DNA of 64,000 bases from Gemmatimonadota bacterium (GTDB lineage: Bacteria; Gemmatimonadota; Gemmatimonadetes; Palauibacterales; Palauibacteraceae), in contig JAZGCO010000100.1 in NCBI GenBank assembly GCA_036476995.1, positions 16,428 through 80,427 of the forward strand, in the 5' to 3' direction. The notes below the pieces were generated by a model, which was not told where the DNA came from, did not search any database, and was given only the letters and a program-made list of their open reading frames with translations. This document shows, piece after piece, positions 1,441 through 30,651 of the stretch. The translations under genes were made by a program, and so were the position numbers. The first letter of the stretch is position 1; each line of letters starts with the position of its first letter.

Positions 1441-1483
1441 CAGGACACTGGTTGATCGTGCTGTTCAGCCAAGGAGCTGCGCT

Positions 1484-2814: not shown

Positions 2815-2857
2815 AGGAACGCTTTACGTATAGGTAAAGCGAGTTGCCATTGGGCTT

Positions 2858-3967: not shown

Positions 3968-3975
3968 CCGACTGT

Positions 3976-4965: not shown

Positions 4966-4980
4966 AAAGAGAGTAGTGAG

Positions 4981-6450
4981 ATGCCCAAGGTAGACGTGAT
5001 CATGCCGCAGATGGGGGAGTCGATCGCAGAGGGGACACTCACGAGATGGCTGAAGAATGTGGGCGACGCCGTAGAGCGCGACGAAGATCTGTTTGAGATT
5101 TCGACCGACAAGGTGGATGCGGATATCCCGTCCCCCGCGACAGGCACACTCGCGGAAGTCTTGGTCCAGGAAGGGGACACGGTCGAGGTAAATTCGGTCG
5201 TGGCGCGGATCGAAACTTCCGGCGAGGGCGCCGGCGAGGGCGGCGGCGGCGCGGAGGAGGAAGCGGCCACAGCCGCCGTGACCGAAGAGCCGGCTGCGGT
5301 GGTACCGGCAGAGGCGCCCGCCCCGGCGGTCGCGGAGACCATACCCGAGCCTGTAGCTCCCGCTGCCGAGGCCGATACTTCGGCCGGGGCCGATACTCCG
5401 GCCGGGGCCGGCGAAGTGATGACGCGTGAGGAACGGCTCCGCACGAAATCCACGCCTCTTGTCCGGAAGCTGGCTGAGGAGCACGGAGTGAAGATCAGCC
5501 AGATCACGGGCACGGGCATCGCGGGCCGTGTGACACGCGACGACCTGCTGGCGTACCTGGAGCGCCGGCCGGCCGGCGCCGAGGCGGCGGAACCCTCAGC
5601 ACCGGCTGCGACGCCGAGCGCGCCGGCTCCGGTGCCCGGAACGCCGGTTGCCGCGCCATCCATAGGCCAGCCAGGCGTGATGCGGGTTCCGATTCACGGA
5701 GCCACACTCGATATCAAGATCCCGGGCGTAACGATTCGAGAGGGAGACCGGGTCGAGGAAATGAGCCGCGTCCGGCTCCGCACGATGGAACACATGCTTA
5801 TGTCGAAACGGATTTCAGCTCACGTGACGTCCGTGTCCGAGATCGACTTTGAGCGAGTGGTCCAGCTCCGACGCAGGCTGAAGGGGAAGTACGCTGATAA
5901 GGGCGTAAAGCTGACCTACGGTCCGTTCATCATGAAGGCCGTGACCGAAGGTCTGCTGGCCTATCCCATCCTTAATTCGTCCGTCAACGGCACCCAGATC
6001 GTGTACCACGGCGACATCAACCTGGGCATCGCCGTATCCATCAACGACGGCCAGGAACTCATCGTCCCGGTGCTCAAGAATGCCGACCAGCTTTCCCTGA
6101 TGGGACTGGCCAGCGGCGCCAACGATCTCGCGGAGAAGGCGCGCACGAAGTCGTTGGACTTCGACGACATTCAGGGCGGGACGTTCACGATCACCAACGT
6201 CGGTGTGTTCGGGAACCTGTTCGGAACGCCTATCGTGAACCAGCCGCAGGTGGCCATCCTCGGCACAGGCGTGATCGAGAAGCGGCCAGTGGTCCTCCAG
6301 GACGCGATGGGCAACGATGTGATCGGAATCCGGCACATGTGCTACTTCGGCCTGAGCTACGACCACAGGGTCGTGGACGGCGCGATGGCCGCGTTCTTCC
6401 TCAACAAGGTTCAGGAGGTCCTCGAGAACTTCCCGGAGGACGGCGTCTAG
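4981..6450 (+). CDS. Dihydrolipoamide acyltransferase E2 component
   Basis: N-terminal lipoyl domain (EISTDKVDADIPSP), Ala/Pro-rich linkers, an E3-binding domain, and a catalytic domain with DHRVVDG. Confidence 0.9.
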   Translation: MPKVDVIMPQMGESIAEGTLTRWLKNVGDAVERDEDLFEISTDKVDADIPSPATGTLAEVLVQEGDTVEVNSVVARIETSGEGAGEGGGGAEEEAATAAVTEEPAAVVPAEAPAPAVAETIPEPVAPAAEADTSAGADTPAGAGEVMTREERLRTKSTPLVRKLAEEHGVKISQITGTGIAGRVTRDDLLAYLERRPAGAEAAEPSAPAATPSAPAPVPGTPVAAPSIGQPGVMRVPIHGATLDIKIPGVTIREGDRVEEMSRVRLRTMEHMLMSKRISAHVTSVSEIDFERVVQLRRRLKGKYADKGVKLTYGPFIMKAVTEGLLAYPILNSSVNGTQIVYHGDINLGIAVSINDGQELIVPVLKNADQLSLMGLASGANDLAEKARTKSLDFDDIQGGTFTITNVGVFGNLFGTPIVNQPQVAILGTGVIEKRPVVLQDAMGNDVIGIRHMCYFGLSYDHRVVDGAMAAFFLNKVQEVLENFPEDGV

Positions 6451-6694
6451 TCCTCATGGACCGGCAGGGCCGAGTCCGCCCACCAGTAGTTCGGGATTAT
6501 GGCCTTGCCGGCGATATGATCGGCCGTTAACAGGCTTCTCGCCGAGAAATCAGCCGCAATAGCAGTCCCCCGCGCCCGTTATCGTTCGCTTTCGGGACAG
6601 TATGTGCGATATTGAAGACGCGAATAGCCCTCGACTAAAGAAGTGACATAACGTATATGCGGGCAGCCAAAGAATTTACCGTACGACACGGTAA

Positions 6695-6710
6695 CGGCAC
6701 AGCCGTTGCA
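6695..6710 (+). promoter_or_regulatory. Sigma-54 (-24/-12) promoter candidate upstream of the adaptor/ABC/EBP/HK operon
   Basis: cGGCACagccgTTGCA matches GG-N10-GC with consensus spacing (TGGCACG-N4-TTGCW). The operon it precedes encodes a sigma-54 activator. Confidence 0.45.
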
Positions 6711-6831
6711 TTCTGTGGCCATGATTCGTTGGGCGGAAACCTGATCGTTCATCTTCACGTACGAACACTCGCGGTGGATCCGGGAAGTCGGAGCACGGAT
6801 CTGAAATCAATAGCAGAGAACCAGGGCACGG

Positions 6832-8166
6832 ATGTCTGAACCAAGTCAGAAAACCGGCGGCGAGCCATCGGCAAGGCCGCGGCGCGAGCGGCCGGGAGTA
6901 GCCGAGAGCCTTCGTGGCCCGTCCGGCATGGACATACGGCGGGAGCCGAAGAGCAAGCGCCCGCGGAACATCTTGATTGCGGCCGTAGTTGTTGCGGCAG
7001 TCTTGATCACCGTCTTCCTGGCTCGTCTGGAGCCGGCGGCGCCATCGATCGACAGGAACACGATAGTCCTGGGCCAGGTGGAGCGAGGGAACATGGTTCG
7101 CGCCGTGCGTGGATCGGGCACCCTCGTCCCGGAAAAGGTTCAGTTCGTGGCCGCCGTAACCGCTGGGCGCGTGGAGTCTGTGCACTTCGAGCCCGGCGAG
7201 ACGGTCACCGCCGACGACATCATTCTCGTCCTTTCGAACCCGGACGAAGAGCTGAACGTGTTACAGGCGGAGCAGCAATGGACGGCGGCCAAGGCCACAC
7301 TGGTGTCTCTTCAGCAGAGTCTCGGTACGCAGGAGCTCTCACAGGAAGCCTCCGTGGCCACCACCCGGGCTCAGTACCTGGAAGCCAAGCGTCGCTCCGA
7401 TGCCTTCGCCAAGCTTGTGGGGAGCCAGGGAGTGTCGCGCGACGAGTACGCCACCGCGTTGGGGAACACGGAGGCGTTAGCGACGCTGCTTCGGACATCG
7501 GAGCAGCAACTCGAGTTGCTGAACCGTACGACTACAGAGCAATTGGCCGTTCAGCGGGATCAGGTGGCCCGGCTTCGGTCCATCTTAGACTTTCGGCGCG
7601 CCCAGGCCGCATCCATGCAGGTCCGCGCCGGCGCGGACGGTGTCCTGCAGGACTTCTCGCTCGAGACGGGGCAGTGGGTCCAATCCGGGACGACTCTGGC
7701 CCGCGTCGCGCAGGCGGATCGTCTCAAGGCCGAAATTCGCATACCGCAGACGCAGGCCCGCGATGTCCGGGTCGGGCTTCCGGCTACCATCGACATGAGA
7801 ACCGACACGATTCCGGGGCGGGTCCGCCGCGTAGACCCGAACGTGCAGAACGGCTCAGTACTGGTCGAGGTGACGCTGGAAGGTGAGTTGCCAGCGGGCG
7901 CACGGCCCGACCTGAGCGTGGACGGGACCGTGGAGCTGGAGCGACTCGAAGACGTACTGTTCGTCGGCCGGCCGGCCTTCGGACAGAGCAACAGCACGGT
8001 GACAGTATTCCTCGTTGACGGTTCTGCAGCTGAGCGTAGGACCGTAAGTCTCGGCCGGAGCTCAGTGAACCACATCGAGATTCTGGACGGGTTGGGTGAG
8101 GGGGACGAGATCATCCTCTCAGATATGTCCCGGTACGACAACACCGATCGTGTACGGCTCCGCTAG
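6832..8166 (+). CDS. HlyD-family periplasmic adaptor (membrane fusion protein)
   Basis: N-terminal transmembrane anchor, long coiled-coil region and a beta-barrel/lipoyl-like C-terminus. Alternative start is ATG at 6928. Confidence 0.75.
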   Translation: MSEPSQKTGGEPSARPRRERPGVAESLRGPSGMDIRREPKSKRPRNILIAAVVVAAVLITVFLARLEPAAPSIDRNTIVLGQVERGNMVRAVRGSGTLVPEKVQFVAAVTAGRVESVHFEPGETVTADDIILVLSNPDEELNVLQAEQQWTAAKATLVSLQQSLGTQELSQEASVATTRAQYLEAKRRSDAFAKLVGSQGVSRDEYATALGNTEALATLLRTSEQQLELLNRTTTEQLAVQRDQVARLRSILDFRRAQAASMQVRAGADGVLQDFSLETGQWVQSGTTLARVAQADRLKAEIRIPQTQARDVRVGLPATIDMRTDTIPGRVRRVDPNVQNGSVLVEVTLEGELPAGARPDLSVDGTVELERLEDVLFVGRPAFGQSNSTVTVFLVDGSAAERRTVSLGRSSVNHIEILDGLGEGDEIILSDMSRYDNTDRVRLR

Positions 8167-13786: not shown

Positions 13787-14644
13787 ATGGAATCGCAGCG
13801 CACGATCCACGTAGCCCATAGTCCGGACTCGGATGACGCGTTCATGTTCTACGCCCTGGCCGAAGGCATCATCGATACGGGAGATCTTCGGTTCGTTCAC
13901 GAGCTGGAGGGAATCCAGTCACTCAATGAGCGGGCCATGAAAGGCGAACTCGAGGTTAGCGCGGTCTCGATTCATGCGTACGCCTACCTGACTGACCGTT
14001 ACCTGCTGCTGCCGCACGGAGCCAGCATGGGAGAGCGGTACGGGCCACGCCTCGTCAGTCGCAGCGCGCTCGATCTGTCGGAGGTGAAGAAGTCCGTAGT
14101 AGCGGTGCCCGGCAAGCTGACGTCAGCCTACCTCGGCCTCAAACTGTGGGCTCCCGAGATTCGGACCGTCGATGTTCCGTTTGATGAGATTCAGGAGGGC
14201 GTGGCGGCTGGAGCATACGACGTGGGCCTGATCATTCATGAAGGGCAGCTAACGTACGGCGATAGCGGACTTCATATGCTCCTCGACCTGGGTGAGTGGT
14301 GGCATGAAGAGACCGGTCTTCCGTTACCCCTGGGCGGCAATGTGATACGACGCGACCTGGGCGACGAACTCATTCAAAGGGTTTCGAGACTGTTGTTCGA
14401 GAGCATTCGGTACTCGCTCGAGCATCGGGAGGCCGGAATGAACTATGCGATGCAGTTCGCGCGCGGCCTGGAGCCGCAGGTGGCGGACGAGTTCGTGGGC
14501 ATGTATGTCAATCAACGCACGCTCGACTATGGTGCCGATGGGCGGGCCGCGGTCAGCCTATTCCTGGAGAAAGGGTTTGAGGCGGGCATCTTTCCGGGTC
14601 CGGTCCACGTCGAGTTCGCTGAGATGGCCCATGCCAGCTCTTAG
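13787..14644 (+). CDS. Menaquinone (futalosine pathway) MqnA/MqnD family protein
   Basis: HSPDSDDAFMFYAL resembles the SPCPNDTFIFYAL motif of the PF02621 family. The MqnA versus MqnD subfamily is not resolved. Confidence 0.5.
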   Translation: MESQRTIHVAHSPDSDDAFMFYALAEGIIDTGDLRFVHELEGIQSLNERAMKGELEVSAVSIHAYAYLTDRYLLLPHGASMGERYGPRLVSRSALDLSEVKKSVVAVPGKLTSAYLGLKLWAPEIRTVDVPFDEIQEGVAAGAYDVGLIIHEGQLTYGDSGLHMLLDLGEWWHEETGLPLPLGGNVIRRDLGDELIQRVSRLLFESIRYSLEHREAGMNYAMQFARGLEPQVADEFVGMYVNQRTLDYGADGRAAVSLFLEKGFEAGIFPGPVHVEFAEMAHASS

Positions 14645-15096
14645 GTGAAGCCGTCGAGCGACATCACACTCATCCCGGCGATTCTCCGCAGCCCCGAGTG
14701 CGGCGTAAGGTATGCGTTGGCCTCTGAGACGAGAGCTGTAGCGATCTGGATAGCCCGCTCTGTGCGCCCTCCGAGCTGTGCCCGCACCTGAGCCGACTGG
14801 GTCGCGATCAGAAAGGAAACCGGCACTATCTCGAGACCCGGCAGGGCCGAAATATGGGCGCAGGCCTTCAGTGCGAGCGCATCGTCGCCTCTTCGGTATG
14901 GTTCAACACCGATCTGAAAGATGCTGATCACGGATGTCTGAGCCGTACAGGCTCCCGTGCGCAGGCTCGAGAACAGGAGACGCGTGAGATCCAGGTACGA
15001 GGAGTCACCTAGCAGGTGGAGCGCCAAGACCCCGGCATCGACATGAATGCGGCCCGCCTCTGAAAGTTGCGAGACGAAACGGCTGTGACTACTCAA
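14641..15096 (-). CDS. Putative PIN-domain toxin (VapC-like)
   Basis: Immediately downstream of the AbrB-type antitoxin and overlapping it. Candidate N-terminal beta-strand with Asp (IHVDAGVLAL) and spaced acidic residues. Start is uncertain (TTG proposed). Confidence 0.4.
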   Translation of the reverse strand: MSSHSRFVSQLSEAGRIHVDAGVLALHLLGDSSYLDLTRLLFSSLRTGACTAQTSVISIFQIGVEPYRRGDDALALKACAHISALPGLEIVPVSFLIATQSAQVRAQLGGRTERAIQIATALVSEANAYLTPHSGLRRIAGMSVMSLDGFT

Positions 15097-15316
15097 CTCC
15101 CAGCTCCTCCCACAGAGTGGGCTCGGTCCCGCCGACCGAGCTGAGCATTCCCTCCATTTCCGCAGCCACGTCCACTGGTTCCGACTGCATCTCGACACCG
15201 CCGTCCGGACGGACGATGATCAGCAGGCGGCTTCCGGCCCGAAGCCCCAGAGCCCGCCGGGCCTCCTTCGGAACCACGATCTGATTCTTGCTGCTGAGCT
15301 TCACGGAGCTCGCCAT
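15089..15316 (-). CDS. AbrB/MazE/SpoVT-family antitoxin (VapB-like)
   Basis: SSKNQIVVPKEARRALGL is a swapped-hairpin AbrB-type motif. 75 aa. Confidence 0.6.
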   Translation of the reverse strand: MASSVKLSSKNQIVVPKEARRALGLRAGSRLLIIVRPDGGVEMQSEPVDVAAEMEGMLSSVGGTEPTLWEELGVE

Positions 15317-15418
15317 AAACTACCCCTCTCCCTCTATACAGGGCTAACGGTGCCAGCTTTACGTTCTTACTTTACAGTGGAAGGCGGGTGGTCGAAAGGA
15401 GGGGCCAGACCGGGCGGG

Positions 15419-16480
15419 TCAGACGAGCCAGACCACAAACAGTCCGTAGGCAGTGAGAAGCAGCACTCCCTCCGCACGTGTGATGCGCGAGCCGGAGTAC
15501 GCGATCGGGAGCAGCGCCACACTGAATATCAGGGCCGGGATTACCTCGCGCCCGACAGTGATCGGAGAAAGGGGCAGAGGCTTGATCATCGCTGCGCCGC
15601 CCAGAACGAGTCCAAGATTGAAGATGTTCGAACCGATTACGTTTCCCACCGCAATGTCCCCGAGCCTGCGAACAGCGGCCGCCACGGTCGAGGCGAGCTC
15701 GGGAATCGAGGTCCCAACGGCCACGACGGTAGCTCCGATGATCTCTTCTGAGACGTTGTAGTGCCGTGCGCCCGCAACAGCCGCTTGGACCAGCCACTGC
15801 GCCCCAATCAAGAGGAGGGCAAGGCCGGCCACGATGCGTGGAACCGGCGGGATCTTCCAGCGGCGCAAGGCGGAGGGCAGGGGAGTGTGGTCCGGTAATC
15901 CTTGTGGTTCGGACACGGTAGCGGAGGCCTCTTCCGCGGAGGCCTCCTCTTTCGTCGCACTTCGACTCAGTCGGTTTTCATCTTTCATGCCCCAGCGTAT
16001 CAGGCTGGCCAGGTATATGGCGAAACCCGTCATGAGGGCCAAGCCTTCCAGCCTGCCCAGCATTTCGTTCCACGAGAGAAGCACCACGATGGCAAGGACG
16101 AAAATCAGCAGTGGCCCCTCACGCTCAATCAGGCGGCGGTGAACCGTGATGGGTCTGATGAGAGCGGCGATACCAACGATCAGGCCGACGTTCGCGATTG
16201 TGGAACCCATCACGTTTCCTACGGCCAGGCCCTCCCGGTTCTGGAGCACCGCGGTGAAGGACACGACGAGTTCCGGAGCCGATGTTCCGAACGCGACCAC
16301 CGTGAGACCCAGCAGGAGGGGATTGACCCCACGCTTTTCGGCCAGGCTGGATGTGCCGGTGACGAGCCAGTCAGCCCCAATGGCGAGCGAGACGAGACCG
16401 AGAATGAACAGGCCTAGCTGGATGATCACAACCCGGCCGCGTCTCCCGTGCAGTGTGGATAACCCGCCCTCAGCTCCCAC
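15419..16480 (-). CDS. Ca2+/cation antiporter (CaCA family, YrbG-like)
   Basis: Two alpha-repeats with GTSxPE motifs (GTSAPELVVS, GTSIPELAST), about 10 transmembrane segments and an acidic central loop. GTG start. Confidence 0.85.
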   Translation of the reverse strand: MGAEGGLSTLHGRRGRVVIIQLGLFILGLVSLAIGADWLVTGTSSLAEKRGVNPLLLGLTVVAFGTSAPELVVSFTAVLQNREGLAVGNVMGSTIANVGLIVGIAALIRPITVHRRLIEREGPLLIFVLAIVVLLSWNEMLGRLEGLALMTGFAIYLASLIRWGMKDENRLSRSATKEEASAEEASATVSEPQGLPDHTPLPSALRRWKIPPVPRIVAGLALLLIGAQWLVQAAVAGARHYNVSEEIIGATVVAVGTSIPELASTVAAAVRRLGDIAVGNVIGSNIFNLGLVLGGAAMIKPLPLSPITVGREVIPALIFSVALLPIAYSGSRITRAEGVLLLTAYGLFVVWLV

Positions 16481-16565
16481 ACGCCCAATCGCATGTGGAC
16501 AGCCGTGGACAATCTAGTCGTCCATATCATCTCATCTGTAACTACATACGAAATCTAGAGATGTA

Positions 16566-17069
16566 CTATCCTGTCAGTTTTTCAGCCTTCGCGGGAAGCT
16601 CTGCCGGCATCGGTTTGTCCCCAGTGGGGAAATCAGCATCAACTCTCTCGCTATCGACTTTCCGCTTGGACTTTGGCTCGCCCATGTGGAGGCTACCATC
16701 GACCTGCCCACCTTCATCCAGTTTCACGCGACGGCTCCTGATGTCGCCTTCCACTCTGCAGGTGGCCTGAAGTTCTACACGGCTGTCCGCTGACACACTG
16801 CCTTGTACCCTGCCAGCCACAATGCAATCTTGCGTCTCAATATCGCCGACCACGATGCCTTCCTGGCCGACAACAACGCTCTTGCCAGCTCGAATGGATC
16901 CCTCCACTCGACCTTCCACGCGGATCGTGCCGTCGCTCGAGCAGTCGCCGACGATCTTCATACCGGGCCCGACGATCGATACGAAATCGCCCGCGTCCCG
17001 CAACCCATTCTCGCTTCGAGGCTTCATCTCCACAGCTGCCTTTCTCCTGATTTCACCCTGCCTGTCCAT
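16566..17069 (-). CDS. Bactofilin (DUF583 polymer-forming cytoskeletal protein)
   Basis: Repetitive beta-helical bactofilin pattern (VxGxVxG repeats) with a charged C-terminal tail. Confidence 0.8.
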   Translation of the reverse strand: MDRQGEIRRKAAVEMKPRSENGLRDAGDFVSIVGPGMKIVGDCSSDGTIRVEGRVEGSIRAGKSVVVGQEGIVVGDIETQDCIVAGRVQGSVSADSRVELQATCRVEGDIRSRRVKLDEGGQVDGSLHMGEPKSKRKVDSERVDADFPTGDKPMPAELPAKAEKLTG

Positions 17070-17084
17070 CCGTGCTTGGCGCGC

Positions 17085-17858
17085 TCAGCCGCCGCTCACG
17101 AACCCAAGGGGATCCAAAGGCTCCCCATCTCGCTCGACTTCCAAGTGCAAATGCGGTGCCGTCGATCGACCCGTGTTTCCGGTCAAGGCGATGACCTCTC
17201 CCCGTTGTACAGAGTCGCCAGAAGTGACGAACAACCAAGAATTATGCGCGTACAGCGTCGACAGACCATCCGCGTGCGCAATCCTCACGTATTTCCCGTA
17301 GGATTCCTCTTCTTCTGCAGCCTCGACGACTCCAGCTCCTGAAGCCCGTACATAGGAACCGATCGGCACCGCGATGTCGAGTCCCACATGTCCCTCGAAC
17401 GGAGCCGACAACGTGTCACCGAAGGAGCGGGTAACAAATCCCTGCGCCACTAGTGGCCACAGGGAAGGAATGGTCGTCTGCTCTGATGAGCCAGCGGCAC
17501 CGCCACCCGGCATTACTTCCGGAAGCGTAACGTCCCGTTGACCCGGTGCCAACTCGCCGCCCATCACCCGGCGCACCTGGGAATACTCAGCCTCCAACCG
17601 CGCGAGCTGGTCTGAGAGGACGGCGATCTTCGAGTTCTCGCGTGCCAGGGACACGATTCTCTCTCGCTGTGACGCGACCAGGTCGGCCCGCGAGAAGCGG
17701 CCCAGCCAAATTCCGAACGTAACGAACGCCGCGATTACAACAAGTACTGCCCCGGCGACGAAGAGTGTCTGCCTGCGTTCCCCGAGTTCGAATCTGTGGG
17801 AGCGGGTGGCGCCCCCTCGAATCACCAGGATCGTGAACCGGCTTCTCTGAGTCGCCAT
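17085..17858 (-). CDS. M23 family metallopeptidase (LytM domain) with N-terminal TM and coiled coil
   Basis: HxGxD motif (HVGLDIA) and the HxH region (GNTGRSTAPHLHLEV). Confidence 0.85.
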   Translation of the reverse strand: MATQRSRFTILVIRGGATRSHRFELGERRQTLFVAGAVLVVIAAFVTFGIWLGRFSRADLVASQRERIVSLARENSKIAVLSDQLARLEAEYSQVRRVMGGELAPGQRDVTLPEVMPGGGAAGSSEQTTIPSLWPLVAQGFVTRSFGDTLSAPFEGHVGLDIAVPIGSYVRASGAGVVEAAEEEESYGKYVRIAHADGLSTLYAHNSWLFVTSGDSVQRGEVIALTGNTGRSTAPHLHLEVERDGEPLDPLGFVSGG

Positions 17859-17864
17859 GTAAGT

Positions 17865-18791
17865 CTAGGTGAACAGGTCGGTTCGGGCCTGCGGGACCAG
17901 CTTCGTCACCAGACGCTCAAAATCCGAAGAGTCGTGGAAGGCGAGCCGAATCTCGCCCGAGGTCGCCGTGCTGAGCCGTACGGCCACCCGGGTGCCGAGC
18001 TCTCGGGCCAGCAATGTCTCCGCTCGCCTGGCTACTGGATCCTGCTTCACCGGGCTGCGAGGCCGCTTCTTTCCGGCGCCGGCGCCAAAGTTTCGCGCCT
18101 GGTTCTCGGCCTGTCGGACGGACAGCCGCTTCGCGACGATCTTCCGGGCCAGCTCGAGTTGATCCTTCCGAGCCTCTACGCTTAGGATCGCCCGTGCATG
18201 ACCCGCCGTGATTTTCTCCGCAGCCAGAAGCTTTCGGATAGCCTCGGGGAGGCCCAGTAGTCGCAGCGAATTGGCTACGGCGGGCCGGCTTTTGCCTACC
18301 CGTTCGGCCACCTGCTGCTGTGAGAACCCGAAGGTCTCAACGAGCGTTTGGTAGGCCATCGCTTCATCCAGCGCGCCCAGTGACTCTCGCTGGAGATTCT
18401 CGACGAGCGCGCTCAGGAGCATTTGCTCGTCCGAGAACTCGCGTACGACGGCGGGGGCCGCCTCCCAGCGGAGACGCTGAAGGGCGCGAAAACGCCTCTC
18501 GCCAGCTACGATCTCCCATTCGTCACCCGCAGCCCGGACCACGAGGGGCTGTAGTAAGCCGTTGTGCTTGATCGACTGCTGCAACTCCTCCAGCGACTCG
18601 GACTGAAACGCTGACCGCGGCTGAAACGGATTCGGGCGAAGGCGCTTCAGGGGTATCTGGCGAACCGACCCGGCATCCGGAGCAGGCTCGTCCATGTAGT
18701 CACCCAGGAGCGCACCGAGACCCTTGCCGAGGCGGGTACGGTGGTTGTCAACCAACTTTGGCTCTCCTGTAGTCCTTGCGAACGATCTCAC
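17865..18791 (-). CDS. parB: Chromosome partitioning protein ParB
   Basis: ParB box (GERRFRA), an HTH, and the N-terminal GKGLGALL motif. Start is GTG at 18791, or TTG at 18755 overlapping the parA stop. Confidence 0.9.
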   Translation of the reverse strand: MRSFARTTGEPKLVDNHRTRLGKGLGALLGDYMDEPAPDAGSVRQIPLKRLRPNPFQPRSAFQSESLEELQQSIKHNGLLQPLVVRAAGDEWEIVAGERRFRALQRLRWEAAPAVVREFSDEQMLLSALVENLQRESLGALDEAMAYQTLVETFGFSQQQVAERVGKSRPAVANSLRLLGLPEAIRKLLAAEKITAGHARAILSVEARKDQLELARKIVAKRLSVRQAENQARNFGAGAGKKRPRSPVKQDPVARRAETLLARELGTRVAVRLSTATSGEIRLAFHDSSDFERLVTKLVPQARTDLFT

Positions 18792-19533
18792 CAGCCAGAC
18801 TCAAATAGCCTCGCGCACCGGTCGACAGCACGTCGTACACAGCAATTGGCTCCCCGAAACTCGGAGCCTCTGCAAGACGGACGTTTCGCGGAATATACGT
18901 GCGAAAAACGCGGGTACCGAAGTATTCCTTCACATCCCCCGCGACCTGCTTGGACAGGTTCAGCCTGGAGTCGAACATCGTGAGCAGTACGCCCTCGATA
19001 TCGAGCTCGGGGTTCAGGCCCCGTTGAACGATTCGAACCGTGTTCAGGAGCTGACTAAGGCCCTCCAGCGCATAGAACTCACACTGAATCGGGATGAGAA
19101 CAGTGTCGGCTGCGACGAGGGTGTTGAGTGTCAGCAGGCCCAGTGATGGCGGACAGTCGATGAGAATGTACTCGTAGCGATCCCGAATGGAGGCGATAAC
19201 ATTCTTCAGCACTCGCTCTCGGTTCGGCCATTCGATCAACTCTACTTCAGCGCCGGTTAGATCTCGGTTGGCGGGAATCGCGTCTAAGTGCGGGAGGTGA
19301 ACCCCCTCGTAGATGGCGTCTTGGGCTGGCCTACGGTTTACCAGACAGTCATAAACGGAGGGCCTGCCTCCCCCTTTCGAAATCCCCAGCCCGCTTGTGA
19401 GGTTGCCTTGCGGATCACAATCGATCACCAACGTTTTTTTTTCGTGGACGGCCAGCGAGGCTCCGAGGTTGATGGCAGTCGTTGTTTTTCCGACCCCACC
19501 CTTCTGGTTGGCAATTGAGATTACCCGAGCCAT
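18748..19533 (-). CDS. parA: Chromosome partitioning ATPase ParA (Soj)
   Basis: Deviant Walker A motif KGGVGKTT. Confidence 0.95.
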   Translation of the reverse strand: MARVISIANQKGGVGKTTTAINLGASLAVHEKKTLVIDCDPQGNLTSGLGISKGGGRPSVYDCLVNRRPAQDAIYEGVHLPHLDAIPANRDLTGAEVELIEWPNRERVLKNVIASIRDRYEYILIDCPPSLGLLTLNTLVAADTVLIPIQCEFYALEGLSQLLNTVRIVQRGLNPELDIEGVLLTMFDSRLNLSKQVAGDVKEYFGTRVFRTYIPRNVRLAEAPSFGEPIAVYDVLSTGARGYLSLAGEIVRKDYRRAKVG

Positions 19534-19699
19534 CTACCTCTAACCGATTGTCTGATACTAGTTTATGATATTCGCTACGTCCAGCAGCAGCTGGGTGCAC
19601 GCCTTGGTTCCGGGTAGCCCCTGCCTGGCCATCCGGCCAGGCAGGGGCTCGGCGACCGCAATATGGCTGCGCCTGAATAGAGCCGCAATATTTTACGAA

Positions 19700-19715
19700 T
19701 GTTTCCCGTGAAACA
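19700..19715. promoter_or_regulatory. parS centromere-like site
   Basis: tGTTTCcCGTGAAACa matches the 16-bp parS consensus TGTTTCACGTGAAACA at 15 of 16 positions. It lies in the mnmG-parA intergenic region. Confidence 0.6.
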
Positions 19716-19738
19716 TCTAGTGCAGCCTCTAGCGAGCC

Positions 19739-21670
19739 TCAAGAGCGCGCGGCCGAAGGTGACGCGGCAGCTTTGCCCTGCGCTCTGAACTTACGGACCT
19801 CTACCAAGAGTGCGAGCAAGTCGGCTGGGGAAATCCCCGGGATTCGGGAAGCTTGACCGAGCGTCGAAGGACGGATTTGGTCGAGCTTCTGCCTGGCCTC
19901 TGTAGAAAGGGAGACCAGACCTCGATACGGAAGGTCCGACGGCAAGGGAAGCGACTCCCGTTCGCGAAGCTGCCCGGCGCGTTCTTTCTCGCGGCTGATG
20001 TACCCGTCGTATTTGGTCTCCATTTCCAAAACCGTTACAGCGTCCGCACCGAGGGCCGATTCGATTGTCGGCTCCAGTAGTTCTCCCAGTACTCCCAGCT
20101 GAACGCCTGGCCTCTTCAGCAAGCGCTGGGCGGGCTGCGTTTCGCGAAGTTCGGCGCTTCCGATCGACACCAGGTACGAATTGACCCGAGCGGGTAAGGC
20201 GCGAGCCTGTCCAAGCCAGTCCCGGCCACGATCGAGCGCCTCCAGGTGCGAGTCCAGGATTCTCTTCTCGGCGTCCGTCAGAAGGCCGAGTCGCGTGGCC
20301 GTTGGCCCGAGACGCTGGAGACAATTGTCCTGCCGAAGTATCAGGCGAAACTCGGCCCTGGAGGTGAACAGGCGATACGGCTCGTCCACTCCGCGGGTGA
20401 CCAGATCGTCGATCAAGACGCCCAGGTATGCTTCATCGCGGGCCGGGACCCAGGGTTCCCGCTCGGAGACCGCGAGAGCAGCGTTGATGCCGGCTACAAT
20501 GCCCTGTCCGGCCGCCTCCTCGTAGCCTGTCGTGCCGTTGATCTGCCCAGCGAGATAGAGGCCAGGAAGAGGCTTGAGCTCCAGGGTCGACGTTAGCTGC
20601 GTAGGCGTGAAGAAGTCGTACTCTATCGCGTAGCCGGGCTGGGTCATCCGCGTCGCTTCAAGGCCTGGGATGCGGGCCAGAAACCGGCGCTGAACGTCGG
20701 CCGGGAGTGAGGTTGAGAGGCCGTTTACATACAACTCGGCAGTCTCAAGTCCTTCAGGCTCGAGAAACACCCGATGGCTCTCCGCATCGGGAAACTTGAG
20801 CACCTTGTCCTCGATCGACGGGCAGTAGCGGGGGCCCTGGGCTGAACTAGCTCCGGAGTACATCGCCGATTCTGCCAGGTTGTCCGCGACCACTTCCTTG
20901 ACGGCAGGACCCGCCTGAGTGATCCAGCAGGGCCGCTGAGGGAGGATTTCCGCGAGCTCCCAATGTGAAAACCGGAGGCCGTTCAGCTCGCCGTCCTGCC
21001 GTTCGAAACGGCTGAAGTCCACTGTACGGCCATCGATTCGCGGTGGTGTGCCCGTTTTGAATCGCCCCGACTCCAGTCCCAGATCGAGTAGTTGCTCGGC
21101 GAGCGGCACCGAAGGAGCGTCTCCCGCTCGCCCTGCTCCTATCTTCACCGAGCTGCCCATCAAGATCTGGCCGCGGAGAAATGTTCCCGCGGTCAGAATA
21201 GTGCAGCGGGCCCTAAACACTGTCCCGTCCTGGCACTCGACCCCTGCTGCACGACCTCGATCCGTATGGAGCGCAACCACACTGCCCTGATAGAGATCCA
21301 GCCCGGCTTCCAACTCTAGAAGTGTTCGTACGGCACGTGAGTAGAGACCGCGGTCACACTGGGCCCTTGGCGCCCAAACCGCAGGACCCTTCGACCGGTT
21401 GAGCATGCGGAAGTGGAGCGTCGTCTGATCTGCTGCGCGCCCCATGATCCCGCCGAGAGCGTCCACCTCCCGTGCTACCGTACCCTTGGCGATTCCACCG
21501 ATGGCCGGGTTGCACGACATCTGTCCAACACGGGCGAGAAAAGACGTTACCAGCAGTGTCTTCGCTCCCATCCTGGCGGCGGCTCGCGCCGCCTCGCAGC
21601 CGGCATGGCCTCCCCCGATTACCAGAACGTCGTACGACAATTTCTTCGCCCCTCTCCCGATTCCGTCCAT
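19739..21670 (-). CDS. mnmG: tRNA uridine 5-carboxymethylaminomethyl modification enzyme MnmG (GidA)
   Basis: N-terminal FAD-binding motif [16 protein letters not shown] and overall GidA similarity. Start set at the Met preceding the FAD motif. Confidence 0.9.
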
Positions 21671-21748
21671 TTGCGTTAACTTGTAGCCGCAATATCGGCA
21701 CTGCACGGTGGCGGGGCTAGTTCAGGACAGTCAGGAATCGCGGTAGGC

Positions 21749-22033
21749 GTGAGCAAAGACGACAACGTCCAACAAGGTTTCGTGGTCCGTGGACGGGTGC
21801 AAGGCGTGGGATATCGCTACTGGGTGGCACGGTTGGCTCGCCGCCATGACATGGCCGGGACCGCGCGAAATACCGCTGATGGTGCTGTCGAAGTCCACGT
21901 GCGCGGCCCTGAAGCCGACATGCCGCGCTTTGAAGCACGGTTGCTTGAAGGGCCTTTCTCGGCGCGAGTTACGAGTGTCACCCGAACCGAATCGGACCAG
22001 GACTTGCCGCTGGAGTTTTGGATCTTGGGCTAG
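21749..22033 (+). CDS. acyP: Acylphosphatase
   Basis: VRGRVQGVGYR and GxVE motifs. 94 aa. Confidence 0.8.
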   Translation: MSKDDNVQQGFVVRGRVQGVGYRYWVARLARRHDMAGTARNTADGAVEVHVRGPEADMPRFEARLLEGPFSARVTSVTRTESDQDLPLEFWILG

Positions 22034-22092
22034 CCACTGGTGTAAGAAGTCTAGCTGCTGTTGCGTGACTATATAGAAAGGGAGGCGACCGC

Positions 22093-22887
22093 ATGATTGA
22101 ACTGCCTGATGTCGAGCGAATGATTGAGGGTTTCGCCGGCTACGCGACTGGCAAAACCGTCAAGCGAATCCATATAGATGACGATTCGATCGATATCACC
22201 GCCGAGGAGGCGCAGGAACACCTCTCCGGCCAGGTAATAGACGCCGTCACGAGACAGGGAAAGTTCGTCGTGATCCGGTTCCGTTCGGCCCACAGTCTGG
22301 TAGTTGATATGGGGTCTGCCGGCAGGATTTATCTGGACTCTCAGACCGCACCGCCGGAAGAGACAAGCAAGATTAGGCTCCAGTTTGCGGCCGGCAAGGA
22401 GCTTCGATTTAGCAGTCCAGGCCAGGAGGGAACGGTCTACATGGTGGCTGGAGACGATTTCTCGGGGCTGGGCTCGCTACAGAGCCTTGGACTGGATCCG
22501 CTAAGTGAGGAGCTCACCGCTGAGGCGTTTGTACGCCTATCACAGGCCCACCCGCGGAGCACGCTCAAGGGACTGCTGATGAACCAGGAGGTGGTGGCTG
22601 GGATCGGCAATGAGTATGCCGATGAAATCTGCTTCCAGGCTGGATACCGGCCGGATCTGAAGATCTCGCTTATGAGCTCGGATCAGTTGGAGAAAACGCA
22701 CCTGTATCTCCGGCGAGTTCTGCGCCGAGCTACCCTGCATTGGCAGGCAGCCCATTCTGATCCCGGCTGGCTGATAAATCACCGTAAAGCAGGCACGGCG
22801 TGTCCGAGATGCACCAACGCCCTCACGTCGATGCGCGTCAGCGGCCGTGCCACTTTTGTGTGCACGCGCTGTCAGCGAGCCGCCTGA
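22093..22887 (+). CDS. Fpg/Nei-family DNA glycosylase homolog with atypical N-terminus (Met-Ile-Glu)
   Basis: H2TH region (VAGIGNEYADEI) and a C-terminal zinc finger (CPRC...CTRC). An aaagggagg RBS precedes the ATG. Residue 2 is Ile instead of the catalytic Pro. Confidence 0.8.
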   Translation: MIELPDVERMIEGFAGYATGKTVKRIHIDDDSIDITAEEAQEHLSGQVIDAVTRQGKFVVIRFRSAHSLVVDMGSAGRIYLDSQTAPPEETSKIRLQFAAGKELRFSSPGQEGTVYMVAGDDFSGLGSLQSLGLDPLSEELTAEAFVRLSQAHPRSTLKGLLMNQEVVAGIGNEYADEICFQAGYRPDLKISLMSSDQLEKTHLYLRRVLRRATLHWQAAHSDPGWLINHRKAGTACPRCTNALTSMRVSGRATFVCTRCQRAA

Positions 22888-22903
22888 GCTTGAGCGCCTA
22901 AAC

Positions 22904-24277
22904 CTACTTTCCAACGCAGAAGCTGCCGAAGACAACGTCCAGTATGTCGTCGGTGGCTACTACGCCAAGCAATTCCTCCAGGGCAAGGGTTGCTTCGGCC
23001 ACGTGTGTAGCCGCGATCTCGGGAGGCCCCGTCTGTAGGACCTCCTGGAATGCTTCGAGTTCCGTTCTGGCGCGCTCAAGAGCTCGCGATTGCCTTATCT
23101 TTGTAATAAAGGGTGGCGAATCTGCGCTCCGGAGACCGCCGAAGGCCTCCTGAGCGAGGCGCTCCCTCAGCGCGGCCAGACCCTCGCCTGTCACTGCGGA
23201 AACAGCAATAGATCCGTCCGGATGCTCAGGTCCGGCAGCGCTCCCTGGCAGCATATCCACCTTGGTCCACACCCTGATCACTCGCCGGGCGTCTCCTACC
23301 GGCCGCTCCTCCTCGAGTTGTGCCAGGAATCGCTCCTCTTCGGGGTCCACGCCCCCTCCGGCCTCGGCGCATAATAGGATCACGTCGGCCGCGGCCAGGT
23401 AGCTTCGCGCTACCTCTACGCCCATTCCTTCCACCTCGTCTGTGGTCGAGCGTAGGCCGGCCGTATCCACCAGCCGGAAGGGGTATCCGTCTACCGCGAT
23501 CACGGACTCGATAGCGTCTCTTGTGGTACCCGGAACCGGCGTAACTATAGCACGTTGCGTTCCATGTAAACTATTGAACAAACTAGACTTACCGACGTTC
23601 GGCCTGCCGGCCAGAACGACCAGGGCGCCGTCCCGTAGGAGCTCCCCCTCGGGAGCCAGGCTCAGGAGTTCTAGCATCTGAGCATGTAGTTCCCTGGCCG
23701 ATGCAGAGATCGTCCCCACGTCCAGGACGCCGTCATCTTCTTCAGGGAAGTCGATATCGTAGGCCAGGAGGGCCTGTAGCTCGAGTAGACCGCGGCGCAA
23801 TTGCTCCACCCGGCACGAAAGTCCTCGCTCCAATTGATGGACAGCTGCGCGCTGCATGGCTGGCGATCGGGCGTCGATAAGGTCTAGGGTGGCCTCCGCC
23901 TGTATCAGATCCAGCTTCCCGTTGAGGTATGCCCGGCGGGTGAACTCTCCACGAGCGGCGGGCGCTGCTCCGGCGGCGATCACGGCGTCCAGCACCCGGT
24001 GCGGCACGATCGCTCCACCGTGCGTGCTGATTTCCAATACATCCTCTCCCGTGTAGGAGGCGGGCGCCGAGAATAGCGTCACCAGGGCGTGATCCAGAAC
24101 CTCGCCGGTCTCGGGGTCGTGTAGGTGACGCTGGCTGCTGTGTCGGGGTTGGAGCCCGGAGAGACCGAGCTGTGAGCAGATTTCAGATACGTCCGGACCG
24201 CTGACCCGGATGAGCGCCACTCCTGCTCTTCCGGGCGCCGTAGATATTGCGGCTACCGTCCGGTTCACAGCGACCAC
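22904..24277 (-). CDS. mnmE: tRNA modification GTPase MnmE (TrmE)
   Basis: G-domain (GRPNVGKSSL) and the C-terminal CVGK motif. Confidence 0.9.
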   Translation of the reverse strand: MVAVNRTVAAISTAPGRAGVALIRVSGPDVSEICSQLGLSGLQPRHSSQRHLHDPETGEVLDHALVTLFSAPASYTGEDVLEISTHGGAIVPHRVLDAVIAAGAAPAARGEFTRRAYLNGKLDLIQAEATLDLIDARSPAMQRAAVHQLERGLSCRVEQLRRGLLELQALLAYDIDFPEEDDGVLDVGTISASARELHAQMLELLSLAPEGELLRDGALVVLAGRPNVGKSSLFNSLHGTQRAIVTPVPGTTRDAIESVIAVDGYPFRLVDTAGLRSTTDEVEGMGVEVARSYLAAADVILLCAEAGGGVDPEEERFLAQLEEERPVGDARRVIRVWTKVDMLPGSAAGPEHPDGSIAVSAVTGEGLAALRERLAQEAFGGLRSADSPPFITKIRQSRALERARTELEAFQEVLQTGPPEIAATHVAEATLALEELLGVVATDDILDVVFGSFCVGK

Positions 24278-24289: not shown

Positions 24290-26083
24290 TCAGCCCGTTT
24301 GCGAGCGGGGCTTCCCTCGCTGCTTTCCAACACTGTCCTCACGCGAGGCTTTCATCTTGGCGTGCGCCGCCCGCCGCTCGCGAGACAGGTAGATCTGCTG
24401 GGGAAGCGAGGCGAGGTTGCTCGTCGTGTAGTAAAGGTTCAGCCCGGACGCAAAATTCAGAAAGATGAAGGTAAGAAAAACCGGCATCGCCCAGCCCATC
24501 ATCTTCATCTGGGCGTTCATCTCCATTCCGCGCTGGCTGATACGCTGAACCAGGAACATCGACGCACCCATGACGAGCGGAATGATATACAGAGGGTCTT
24601 TCAGCGACAGGTCCGGAAGCCACAAGAACGGCACTCCCCTGAACTCAATGGTGCCCTGAAACACGAAGAAGAGCGTAAACAGGATCGGCATCGGCACGAG
24701 CATCGGGAGACAGCCCGACAACGGATTGATGTGATGCTCCTTGTAGAGCTTCACCATCTCCTGCTGCAGCCGCTGCGGGTCCTCCTTGTATCTCGCCTGG
24801 ATATCCTTCATGAGCGGCTGAACCGCCATCTGCTCCATCTGCGACCGCATCGATTTCTGATACAGCGGGAACAGGATAACCCGCATCATCACACCAAATA
24901 CGACCAGCACCCAGCCATAGGCCAGACTAAGTGTGCTGTGGAGCCAGGTGAGCACCACCAACACGATCGCCACCAGGGGGCGCATGATGGGCTGGATCCA
25001 ACTAAAACCGTATGGGTTTACATTCTGCAGGCCTTCGCCGACCGCTTCCAGCCGGCCGTAGTCCTGCGGTCCGAGATACGTCTCGAACGCGAAACCGGCT
25101 GTACCGGCGGGAACTGGCATTGAGGCGGTGATCGCTGCCGCGTGCTCTTGTTCCACGCCCTGCGCCACGAGACCTCCGAAGTCACTCCTGTCCGGATCCG
25201 CTACGAGCGCCACCAGAAAATACTTGTTCTTTATGGCCACCCACCGGAACGGGCCTCCGTCGGCCATGCGGATCTGACCCGCCTTGACCTTGTCCAGGTT
25301 GGTTGCACGGATGCCACCACGGCGATCCTTTACCACATAGGCGAGCTCCCTGTGATCCTCGTCCGGGTTCTTCTCGTTGGTTCTGAGGCCGTTTCCGAGC
25401 GAGACGAGAACGGTATATCCCCGCTCAGGAACACCTTCCAAGCGGCCTTCCGTCTCGATCACGTAAGACCCGGGTGTAAACCGGTACGTGGTCACGAAAG
25501 CCGCATCGGAGCCCGGAAAGCGGTATGTGAACTCCAGCTCGCGGGGCGAATCGCCAGGCCTCAAGAGCAACTCCCGCTCCGACGGCTCGAACGTCGCATT
25601 CTGGAGCGGAACGGTGTCTCGGCCGAGTGTAATGGCGTACTGGAGCAACCGATCGCCGGCACGCACCAATTCCACGCCGGTGAGCCCATTCCCGTTCTCT
25701 ACGTATGAATCGTACTGAGTCAGCTCCGCTCCAATAACCGCTGCGCCGATCGTTGAAAACCGGAGATTGAACACGTCAGTTTGAACACGGATTGTGTCCG
25801 CCGCCTCCCCAGGGCCGCCTGGCAGCGCTGGCTCCAGCCCATCAGCCGGGACGACGGCCGGACTCAGTTGTTCATCTACCGGACGGCCGAGGACGTCAGC
25901 CGCCTGCGCCAGTCCTGGAGCGGTGGGTTCCGCTTCACGTGGGTCTACTCGGGGCGGAGCGGTCGCCTCTGGAGAGTCGGCCCTGAAGGTTTCCGGAGGG
26001 GGTGCTGCCGGCGGAAAGAGGACGTTGGAGAGGATAACTACTCCAATCATCAAGACCACCGCCAGCAGCGCTCGTCTCTGCAT
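24290..26083 (-). CDS. yidC: Membrane protein insertase YidC
   Basis: Large periplasmic domain followed by the conserved 5-TM insertase core. Start set at MQRRALLAVVLMIG, just after the yidD stop. Confidence 0.9.
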   Translation of the reverse strand: MQRRALLAVVLMIGVVILSNVLFPPAAPPPETFRADSPEATAPPRVDPREAEPTAPGLAQAADVLGRPVDEQLSPAVVPADGLEPALPGGPGEAADTIRVQTDVFNLRFSTIGAAVIGAELTQYDSYVENGNGLTGVELVRAGDRLLQYAITLGRDTVPLQNATFEPSERELLLRPGDSPRELEFTYRFPGSDAAFVTTYRFTPGSYVIETEGRLEGVPERGYTVLVSLGNGLRTNEKNPDEDHRELAYVVKDRRGGIRATNLDKVKAGQIRMADGGPFRWVAIKNKYFLVALVADPDRSDFGGLVAQGVEQEHAAAITASMPVPAGTAGFAFETYLGPQDYGRLEAVGEGLQNVNPYGFSWIQPIMRPLVAIVLVVLTWLHSTLSLAYGWVLVVFGVMMRVILFPLYQKSMRSQMEQMAVQPLMKDIQARYKEDPQRLQQEMVKLYKEHHINPLSGCLPMLVPMPILFTLFFVFQGTIEFRGVPFLWLPDLSLKDPLYIIPLVMGASMFLVQRISQRGMEMNAQMKMMGWAMPVFLTFIFLNFASGLNLYYTTSNLASLPQQIYLSRERRAAHAKMKASREDSVGKQRGKPRSQTG

Positions 26084-26084
26084 C

Positions 26085-26324
26085 CTATTTGTGCTCGTGA
26101 CTCGGGTCGGAGAGCGGCACCGGGTCAGGGCCAAGTCCGCCGAACGGATGGCATTTGAGGAGCCTGCGGACACCCAACCACGCGCCCCGCCGGACCCCGT
26201 GCGTGTCGATCGCGATACGCGCGTATTCGGAGCATGTCGGGGTGAAGCGGCAGGCCCCTGGTAGCAACGGCGACACGCCGGCCTGATATGCCTGAATAAC
26301 CAAAAGCAACACTCTCTTCAGCAC
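26085..26324 (-). CDS. yidD: Membrane protein insertion efficiency factor YidD
   Basis: CRFTPTCSEYA and CHPFGGLGPDPVP motifs. Confidence 0.8.
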   Translation of the reverse strand: MLKRVLLLVIQAYQAGVSPLLPGACRFTPTCSEYARIAIDTHGVRRGAWLGVRRLLKCHPFGGLGPDPVPLSDPSHEHK

Positions 26325-26677
26325 CCCACCTCCCGCGTGCAGCGTTCAAAATCGGCCGCCAGAGCCGCAGCGCTCGCGCCGTACGCCTCGGCACGCGCTC
26401 TCACTATCATGTCTCTACTACCACCCGCGTGTCGCCGTGCCGGAAGCCAGCTTGTGCGAGCGATCTCACGCAGCAGCCGCCGGACCTTGTTTCGCTCGAC
26501 AGCGCTATGGCCGCGCTTGGCCACGATCACGGCCAGCCTCGATTCGGACCCGGGCGAGCTGGTTTCGATGATATCAACGAAACGGCCCCGTACGCGTTTC
26601 CCGCCGCGAAACACGGCAGAGATGTCCGTAGTTCTACGTAGCCGGGACTGTCGGGGATAATCGTAGCGAGCTTTCAC
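26318..26677 (-). CDS. rnpA: Ribonuclease P protein component RnpA
   Basis: RNR-like basic motif and position between rpmH and yidD. Confidence 0.8.
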   Translation of the reverse strand: MKARYDYPRQSRLRRTTDISAVFRGGKRVRGRFVDIIETSSPGSESRLAVIVAKRGHSAVERNKVRRLLREIARTSWLPARRHAGGSRDMIVRARAEAYGASAAALAADFERCTREVGC

Positions 26678-26712
26678 CGGATCCTCCGGCGCACGGCTGG
26701 CCGCGCGCCCGC

Positions 26713-26880
26713 CTAGCGGCGGCGCTTCCAGTGGGTCTCGTCGCTCACCGTCAAGGAGTGACGGCCTTTTTTCCGCCGGCGGGACAAGACCGCACGGCCT
26801 GCGCGCGTTTTCATTCGAGCGCGGAAGCCATGATCTTTCAGTCGTTTTCGCCGACTCGGATTTCTATATGTCGGTTGCAT
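26713..26880 (-). CDS. rpmH: 50S ribosomal protein L34 (absent from the ORF track, under 60 aa)
   Basis: Manual translation gives [45 protein letters not shown] plus a 10-aa C-terminal extension. This is L34-like throughout. Confidence 0.7.
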
Positions 26881-30609: not shown

Positions 30610-30651
30610 GCAGGTGCTAGCACTCTGCCTCGCAGATCGGACGGCAGCAGA

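Follow-up and report, generated by a model that had tools for sequence, protein, structure and literature searches.

A candidate operon of parABS, M23 peptidase and bactofilin genes near the replication origin in Gemmatimonadota

ParABS is a machine for segregating the origin region of the chromosome, and modules of a bactofilin and an M23 peptidase are local sculptors of the cell wall. Here we describe a locus in which genes of both kinds are neighbours. It is a string of parS, parA, parB, an M23 metallopeptidase gene and a bactofilin gene in a 64-kb stretch of a Gemmatimonadota contig (JAZGCO010000100.1, positions 16,428 to 80,427). The whole stretch is called the window below, and its own numbering is used throughout.

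The described counterpart of the M23-bactofilin pair is BacA with LmdC, a bactofilin-associated bitopic DD-endopeptidase of Hyphomonas neptunium and Rhodospirillum rubrum, whose cytoplasmic beta-hairpin is the element that binds BacA (Pohl et al. 2024, PMC10945521). Bactofilin-M23 clusters were listed there for 226 species, none of them Gemmatimonadota, and parB is unmentioned in the text (PMC10945521). Bactofilin genes beside parAB have been described in two species. In M. xanthus, parA-parB-bacM-MXAN_7474 lies near oriC and is co-transcribed (PMC3899335, PMC5703909). BacM is a cell-shape factor, and both BacM and its neighbour are dispensable for segregation (PMC3899335). In B. bacteriovorus, the bactofilin gene of parA3-parB-bd3904 was found by reverse transcription PCR to be co-transcribed with parB (PMC7186360, PMC10547168). 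The bactofilins that position ParB-parS and ParA in M. xanthus are BacNOP, acting with PadC and encoded in a separate operon away from parAB. PadC, which carries a ParB-like domain and serves as adaptor, is required for this scaffold, as are three paralogous bactofilins (PMC5703909).

In the window, we consider it probable that a single origin-proximal operon joins a canonical ParABS system to a peptidoglycan-remodelling pair of the BacA-LmdC type. An earlier note on this DNA had claimed five co-oriented elements. All were there on the minus strand, with positions equal or very close to those it gave, and Pfam matches showed its gene identifications to be correct. The features are as follows.

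19739, minus strand: stop codon at the 3′ end of mnmG
19700-19715, strand not applicable: parS, TGTTTCACGGGAAACA, with one mismatch to the consensus TGTTNCACGTGAAACA
18748-19533, minus strand: parA, Soj-type Walker ATPase of 261 amino acids (aa) (AAA_31 4e-64, CbiA 1.6e-28)
17865-18755, minus strand: parB, 296 aa from TTG 18755 (ParB_N 2e-32, HTH_ParB 1.9e-34, TIGR00180 4.5e-54)
17085-17858, minus strand: bitopic LmdC-like M23 metallopeptidase of 257 aa (Peptidase_M23 3.6e-30)
17784-17837, minus strand: codons 8-25 of the M23 gene, predicted cytoplasmic beta-hairpin FTILVIRGGATRSHRFEL, a putative bactofilin-binding element
17559-17765, minus strand: codons 32-100 of the M23 gene, predicted transmembrane helix (about 32-52) and periplasmic coiled coil (about 55-100)
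17088-17426, minus strand: codons 145-257 of the M23 gene, catalytic M23/LytM domain with HxxxD, LYAH and HLH motifs
16566-17033, minus strand: bactofilin of 153-155 aa (PF04519 1.4e-25); the longest open reading frame (ORF), 16566-17069, begins at ATG 17069

As in BacA-LmdC clusters, the bactofilin gene adjoins a bitopic M23 gene. The M23 protein likewise has a short cytoplasmic N-terminus with a predicted hairpin, a transmembrane helix, a periplasmic coiled coil and a zinc-competent M23 domain. Unlike BacA-LmdC, the pair lies within a candidate parAB operon by oriC, the M23 protein has fewer residues (257 aa), no canonical membrane-targeting sequence is conserved in the bactofilin, and binding and activity are predicted from sequence and model. 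The locus shares with the M. xanthus bacM operon a bactofilin gene downstream of parAB near oriC. In that operon, however, the bactofilin gene follows parB without an intervening M23 gene, and the fourth gene encodes a putative lipoprotein. In B. bacteriovorus the bactofilin gene also lies behind parB, and the authors likewise speculated on a link to segregation (PMC7186360, PMC10547168), but no M23 gene was reported beside bd3904. In the window the bactofilin gene has the orientation of parB, the gaps are short, the site scan described below gave no terminator-like match between the genes, and one gene, M23, is intercalated. The Csd1-Csd2-CcmA system of H. pylori is alike in that M23 genes and a bactofilin gene form a cluster whose products sculpt peptidoglycan (PMC9507126, PMC5053510). 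It differs in having a Csd1/Csd2 pair, with one active and one degenerate LytM domain, together with Csd5 and Csd7, whereas the window has a single catalytically intact M23 gene that is linked to parAB. BacNOP-PadC offers a precedent for bactofilins that position ParB-parS and ParA, but neither a PadC-like adaptor nor bactofilin paralogues occur in the window. A hidden Markov model (HMM) scan of all ORFs of the 64 kb found one ParB, one bactofilin and no second ParB-domain protein of PadC type. The earlier note had likened the locus to bactofilins that scaffold ParABS from beside parAB in M. xanthus. This conflated two systems, since the bacM gene beside parAB is dispensable for segregation and the scaffolding BacNOP are encoded elsewhere (PMC5703909, PMC3899335).

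The gene order was conserved throughout the relatives recovered. Database homologues of the M23 protein were full-length and 45-55% identical, and those that were named came from Gemmatimonadota, apart from one “marine benthic group bacterium”. A scan with the alignment of these homologues, taking one genome per GTDB species, found 586 relatives, and the best 80 went into the comparison. They belonged to Gemmatimonadales, Gemmatimonadaceae, Longimicrobiales, Ca. Carthagonibacter and unclassified Gemmatimonadota, with M23 identity down to 35%. The bactofilin gene stood immediately behind the M23 gene in all 80 loci, and parA-parB-M23-bactofilin lay on one strand in every locus with enough upstream flank (77 of 77). 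On a 795-kb contig, genes called independently and labelled by Pfam stood in the identical order, and the wider synteny equalled that of the window. Junctions were tight: parB and the M23 gene overlapped in 46 of 79 cases, typically by 4 nt, and were at most 30 nt apart in 73 of 79, and the gap between the M23 and bactofilin genes was at most 30 nt in 55 of 79 (median 15 nt). The flanks varied. Upstream of parA, mnmG was present in only 48 of 70 loci, and a Na/Ca exchanger gene was found downstream only in the window's own (closest) clade. Elsewhere several unrelated gene families followed the bactofilin gene. They fell into 23 ORF clusters, a figure of qualitative use only, as clustering by longest ORF is noisy in high-GC DNA with its spurious antisense ORFs. 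Since the order is kept while both flanks vary, the four-gene block is more stable than its surroundings.

A contig labelled Akkermansiaceae (CAXMRU010000057.1) carried the full Gemmatimonadota synteny of mnmE, mnmG, parA, parB, M23, bactofilin and Na/Ca exchanger genes, with 49-78% identity. It is probably a mis-binned contig.

Outside the phylum, occurrence was examined by a ParB-anchored metagenome scan, which gave 80 parB loci among the matches listed, 34-47% identical to the query. This sample, biased to ParBs resembling the query, is a rough cross-phylum survey. It was scanned with HMMs built from Gemmatimonadota proteins. Sixty-nine of the listed loci were assessable, and 55 of them had neither gene downstream. 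The remainder comprised 6 with parB-bactofilin, 3 with parB-M23-bactofilin and 5 with parB-M23 (mostly at contig ends); thus a bactofilin gene lay within two genes 3′ of parB in 9 of the 69. Locus L095 was from candidate division KSB1, and parA-parB-M23-bactofilin was present in all three long KSB1 contigs (L162-L164). The KSB1 M23 protein was homologous to that of the window over the transmembrane helix, the coiled coil and the M23 domain (28% identity, residues 30-255). No parS with at most one mismatch was found within 5 kb in these three contigs. In all three, an atpI-like gene and an F1Fo ATP synthase operon stood directly behind the bactofilin gene. The earlier note had proposed to call the association coincidental if relatives lacked it; its presence in 77 of 77 Gemmatimonadota loci and 3 of 3 KSB1 contigs speaks decisively for linkage.

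A Bacillota contig (L104, Ca. Fermentithermobacillaceae) had parA-parB-alr-M23-bactofilin, where alr encodes alanine racemase and the run of parB, alr, M23 and bactofilin genes is at 3788-7641. Its M23 protein was LmdC-like, with a hairpin (RRFSFLVVYSHGKTRTFSL) followed by a transmembrane helix and a coiled coil. A perfect parS (TGTTTCACGTGAAACA) was present at 4894 of this contig, within the start of the alr ORF. Two Acidobacteriota (Blastocatellia; L084 and L153) had parA-parB-bactofilin. The association had been ascribed to “this lineage”, which proved too narrow, as parAB-bactofilin linkage recurs with or without an M23 gene in several phyla. In L148, a Bacillota-like contig, a DUF4446 gene and a gene for a bitopic M23 peptidase stood with parB (665-3049), and the stretch downstream of them gave no bactofilin match. 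Such M23 genes may thus also lie near parAB where bactofilins are missing.

In predicted architecture the M23 protein is LmdC-like, possessing a hairpin, a transmembrane helix, a coiled coil and an intact M23 domain. An AlphaFold2 (AF2) model built on 22 homologues had a mean predicted local distance difference test score (pLDDT) of 71.6. It placed strands at residues 10-12 and 21-23 with low pLDDT, followed by one unbroken helix at residues 27-100 (pLDDT 82-90), hydrophobic in its first part and coiled-coil-like in the remainder. A disordered linker separated this helix from the M23 domain, for which the Pfam match spanned residues 156-250. The hydrophobic stretch LFVAGAVLVVIAAFVTFGIWL is the predicted transmembrane segment and has seven arginines N-terminal to it. 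By the positive-inside rule, we infer from these arginines a cytoplasmic N-terminus and a periplasmic catalytic domain. The zinc and catalytic residues H157, D161, H205, H236 and H238 make up the HxxxD, H and HxH motifs. Four of them (H157, D161, H236 and H238) were invariant across the 80 orthologues, and H205 was conserved in 79. The domain aligned with the active M23 enzymes 3slu and ShyA. NCBIfam gave sub-threshold matches only, at domain level, to MepM, ShyA, Pgp3 and DipM. By analogy with LmdC, DD-endopeptidase specificity would be expected.

The hairpin region held a motif conserved in the 80 orthologues, R-x-hydrophobic-T-(4 hydrophobic)-(P/R)(D/E)G-x3-(S/T)R-x-(Y/F)-R-hydrophobic. It recurred in the KSB1 homologue (KRISILLVPEDNSEPRSFRL) and in the Bacillota homologue cited above, and was therefore found in three phyla. 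By the LmdC precedent, this hairpin would bind the bactofilin. A weak match to the M23 HMM at 316-1323 was considered as a second M23 gene and rejected, as it belongs to an OmpA-family protein.

The bactofilin identification was firm in both sequence and fold. The PF04519 match covered profile positions 1-97 of 98, and AF2 gave a beta-helix at residues 18-117 (pLDDT >90) between disordered tails (<50). In the PDB, Foldseek ranked highest the bactofilin of T. thermophilus (6rib/6ria) and BacA of C. crescentus (2n3d); target TM-scores were 0.85-0.93 and root-mean-square deviations 1.3-2.1 Å. Alignment with 79 orthologues and the lengths of database homologues (147-155 aa) point to a start at GTG 17033 or ATG 17027, which would put the gene 51-57 nt from the M23 stop. 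An N-terminal membrane-targeting peptide is typical of most bactofilins (PMC12448750). No MFSK-type sequence was found here. N-termini had the form M(A/S)K(D/N)R..., varied across the phylum and were MAMFTEK in only one Gemmatimonadales subgroup. Such a targeting sequence is common in the family, not defining. In Caulobacter a client protein can stand in for it (PMC12448750). Given this precedent and the lack of a conserved targeting peptide, membrane attachment through the M23 partner is plausible. A search for a ParA- or ParB-interaction motif in the bactofilin tail, which the earlier note had proposed, was negative. The tails had no such conserved motif across the phylum, and the C-terminal ones were variable, of low complexity and of unequal lengths.

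The parS site was the sole one in the 64 kb with at most two mismatches to the consensus; shuffled sequence gave a mean of 0.74 sites at up to three mismatches. It was located 24 nt past the mnmG stop and 166 nt ahead of the parA ATG. Its core GTTnCACGnGnAACA was the only conserved block of the mnmG-parA spacer in eight relatives. One or two parS sites were found upstream of parA in most Gemmatimonadota loci, with two copies in several. The expectation of a near-consensus parS upstream of parA was thus borne out, with its one mismatch and a core conserved in relatives. The ParA translation showed KGGVGKT, the deviant Walker-A of the Soj/ParA type. ParB had an N-terminal ParB/CTPase domain with AGERRFRA, then a helix-turn-helix domain, and G85, E86, R87, R88 and R90 were invariant in 21 orthologues. 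The longest parB ORF begins at 18791. The start is probably TTG 18755, overlapping parA by 8 nt, because of an AGGAG at 18764-18768 and orthologue lengths of 294-309 aa. By these features of ParA, ParB and parS the system is a canonical chromosomal ParABS, in which ParB would bind parS, spread or clamp in dependence on CTP, and stimulate the ATPase of ParA.

The parS-parA gap contained an inverted repeat at 19617-19648 (perfect over 14 bp, 15 pairs in all, GCCCCTGCCTGGCC GGAT GGCCAGGCAGGGGC), and the folding z-score of the 205-nt mnmG-parA spacer was -4.0. This GC-rich 15-bp hairpin was rejected as a conserved regulatory element, being missing even from the 91%-identical relative L001. It was found in none of the other relatives compared and had no second copy in the window. 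Possible readings are a terminator of mnmG that lacks a U-tract and a recently inserted element.

The string lay about 7-9 kb from the junction of rpmH and dnaA-dnaN, the start of dnaA being 7.2 kb from parS. Two further features define this junction.

24290-26880, minus strand: yidC-yidD-rnpA-rpmH, divergent from dnaA
26958-28463: dnaA (TIGR00362 4.5e-154), followed by a dnaN-sized ORF

The spacer between dnaA and dnaN contained two DnaA-box-like sites and a local dip in G+C content. The proposed position next to the origin therefore holds, on the strength of the divergence of the rpmH side from dnaA, the dnaN-sized ORF, the DnaA-box-like sites and the G+C dip. The only perfect DnaA box of the window, TTATCCACA, was located elsewhere, at 16454-16462 in the AT-rich spacer from the bactofilin stop to the Na/Ca exchanger gene. 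With about 0.5 perfect boxes per window expected at random, finding one is compatible with chance.

A consensus scan of 15000-22500 detected neither a sigma-70-like promoter nor an intrinsic-terminator-like site on the minus strand from parA to the bactofilin stop. As only sites of these two types were covered, this is weak negative evidence. An Rfam scan of the whole window matched no RNA family. A single transcription unit, as the earlier note had suggested, is supported by the tight junctions and, weakly, by the scan. The close packing that it described also stood, with its exact spacers in need of correction. The gap between parB and the M23 gene is 6 nt, not 7, and that from the M23 gene to the ATG of the longest bactofilin ORF is 15 nt, not 16. 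We infer co-transcription of parAB, the M23 gene and the bactofilin gene, with precedents in M. xanthus (PMC3899335) and B. bacteriovorus (PMC7186360), and with it the functional meaning of the linkage described next.

We suggest that ParB would load at the parS just upstream and, with ParA, segregate the origin region. The bactofilin would polymerise on the cytoplasmic face of the membrane without a conserved targeting peptide of its own and would bind the bitopic M23 protein at its short beta-hairpin in the cytoplasm; the coiled coil and zinc-dependent endopeptidase domain of that protein would sit in the periplasm. With the bactofilin bound to the hairpin and the peptidase in the periplasm, peptidoglycan cross-links would be cut only at the bactofilin polymer. 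The par promoter would drive the M23 and bactofilin genes, and the stop/start overlap would couple translation of the M23 gene to that of parB in most relatives. A shared promoter and such coupling would tie dosage and timing of the pair to replication and segregation of the origin region.

Several observations weigh against this reading. An internal promoter may lie within parB, and in KSB1 the gap between parB and the M23 gene was 100-210 nt. The M23 N-terminal hairpin was modelled at a pLDDT of only about 50, and the likeness to LmdC was set by architecture and motif, not by a phylogeny of M23 domains. The peptidase itself was variable in a Gemmatimonadota-like clade (L086, L087, L098, L101 and L092), in which ParB was 51-57% identical to the ParBs of the phylum and parB was followed by a divergent gene for a hairpin, transmembrane helix and coiled coil (GYGNIYTPHAGSMIIQVQRE...). 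In L086 (4843-5649) the M23 domain was degenerate, with RGMD in place of HxxxD. In L087 (998-1483) it was absent; the protein, of 161 aa, had no Pfam M23 match and belonged to a database cluster of six members, all of one length. The bactofilin gene of L092 was apparently directly behind parB. Together, the loci of this clade make up a natural series of losses of the peptidase domain. Where M23 domains are degenerate or absent, peptidase activity is not a universally selected part of the module, and we suggest that the conserved core is the bactofilin with its membrane anchor, rather than hydrolysis.

An alternative is that the bactofilin polymer is physically part of the segregation machinery, anchoring or positioning ParB-parS, or sequestering ParA, at a subpolar site or a pole, much as BacNOP/PadC do in M. 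xanthus or PopZ does in Caulobacter. By also holding the M23 hydrolase, it would bring origin capture and local wall remodelling together in one place. We regard this as possible, though unlikely. Linkage of parAB and bactofilin genes in distant phyla, which would be unusual for functionally unrelated genes, is in its favour. The phyla are Gemmatimonadota, KSB1, Bacillota and Acidobacteria here, and Myxococcota and Bdellovibrionota in the literature (PMC3899335, PMC7186360). The 9 of 69 parB loci with a bactofilin gene at most two genes downstream point the same way, but they come from a sample biased to query-like ParBs. The stop/start overlap of parB and the M23 gene suggests matched stoichiometry, and Gemmatimonadota are reported to be without Min, MipZ and PomZ (PMC11271474), yet the bactofilin tails, N- and C-terminal, carry no motif conserved across the phylum. 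Nor did the window contain the PadC-like protein or extra bactofilin that the M. xanthus scaffold uses, and there the parAB-linked BacM and its neighbour are unnecessary for segregation (PMC3899335).

A broader form of this idea makes the bactofilin and a hairpin-transmembrane-coiled-coil partner an integral, physically coupled part of ParABS in Gemmatimonadota and KSB1, and the bactofilin, without an M23 partner, such a part in Acidobacteria, Myxococcota and Bdellovibrionota. We think this rather improbable. If true, a bactofilin-based membrane anchor would capture ParB-parS or ParA at an envelope site and direct local peptidoglycan hydrolysis. It could then underlie the inert polar spherical appendages (“buds”) of Gemmatimonadota and their placement of the division site without Min, MipZ or PomZ (PMC11271474). 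The peptidase-less sub-lineage would in that case show that the function of scaffold and anchor, not hydrolysis, is the conserved core.

That the linkage is uninformative, an ancestral M23-bactofilin pair having landed behind parB where overlaps and a shared promoter make separation costly, is very doubtful: overlapping junctions do mechanically resist rearrangement, the origin-proximal order of rpmH, rnpA, yidC, mnmE, mnmG and parAB is generally conserved in bacteria, and the 55 of 69 sampled parB loci with neither gene downstream agree with it, but the block persists despite repeated rearrangement of both its flanks within the phylum, and its several forms in several phyla (M23-bactofilin, alr-M23-bactofilin, bactofilin alone, hairpin-transmembrane-coiled-coil with bactofilin) indicate maintained or repeated selection, not a single frozen accident.

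The reading as one operon of ParABS and a BacA-LmdC-type pair adds to what was already known, namely bactofilin-M23 clustering in 226 species (PMC10945521) and parAB-bactofilin co-transcription in two (PMC3899335, PMC7186360). A full-text literature search for Gemmatimonad* with bactofilin returned only unrelated papers. A cell-biology study of Gemmatimonadota reports unexplained polar appendages and no Min, MipZ or PomZ, with bactofilins unmentioned (PMC11271474). Because of that search, and because the 226-species list is without Gemmatimonadota and leaves parB unmentioned (PMC10945521), the phylum-wide four-gene operon, its occurrence in KSB1 and the peptidase-less variants appear to be undescribed in the searched literature. 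The arrangement suggests a possible link between chromosome segregation and local shaping of the cell wall. With a four-gene operon conserved in Gemmatimonadota and KSB1 and looser versions in four other phyla, it is a lead on how segregation and envelope morphogenesis may be coordinated. For the polar appendages and the atypical placement of the division site in Gemmatimonadota, it names first candidate genes, and it adds this major and barely cultured phylum to a published census of bactofilin-M23 clusters in which it was lacking. The analysis also brings out natural variants that retain the membrane anchor and the bactofilin with a peptidase domain that has degenerated or gone.

The surroundings of the locus showed some further features. 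The gene rsmG (gidB) was absent between mnmG and parA. Between mnmE and mnmG, in the region 19739-24277, fpg (22093-22887) and an acylphosphatase gene (21749-22033) lay on the opposite strand, and the relative L081 was arranged alike. On the other side of the string, a gene for a MazE/AbrB-type antitoxin (15089-15316, PF04014 1.6e-09) overlapped a downstream ORF (region 14641-15316). In L081 the corresponding ORF encodes a PIN-domain toxin; the window counterpart had no Pfam match in the frame and start tested. AT skew, calculated in 2-kb windows, was strongly negative at about 30000-32000 (-0.18) and at 42000-45000 (-0.20), values from which the rest of the 64 kb was far off.

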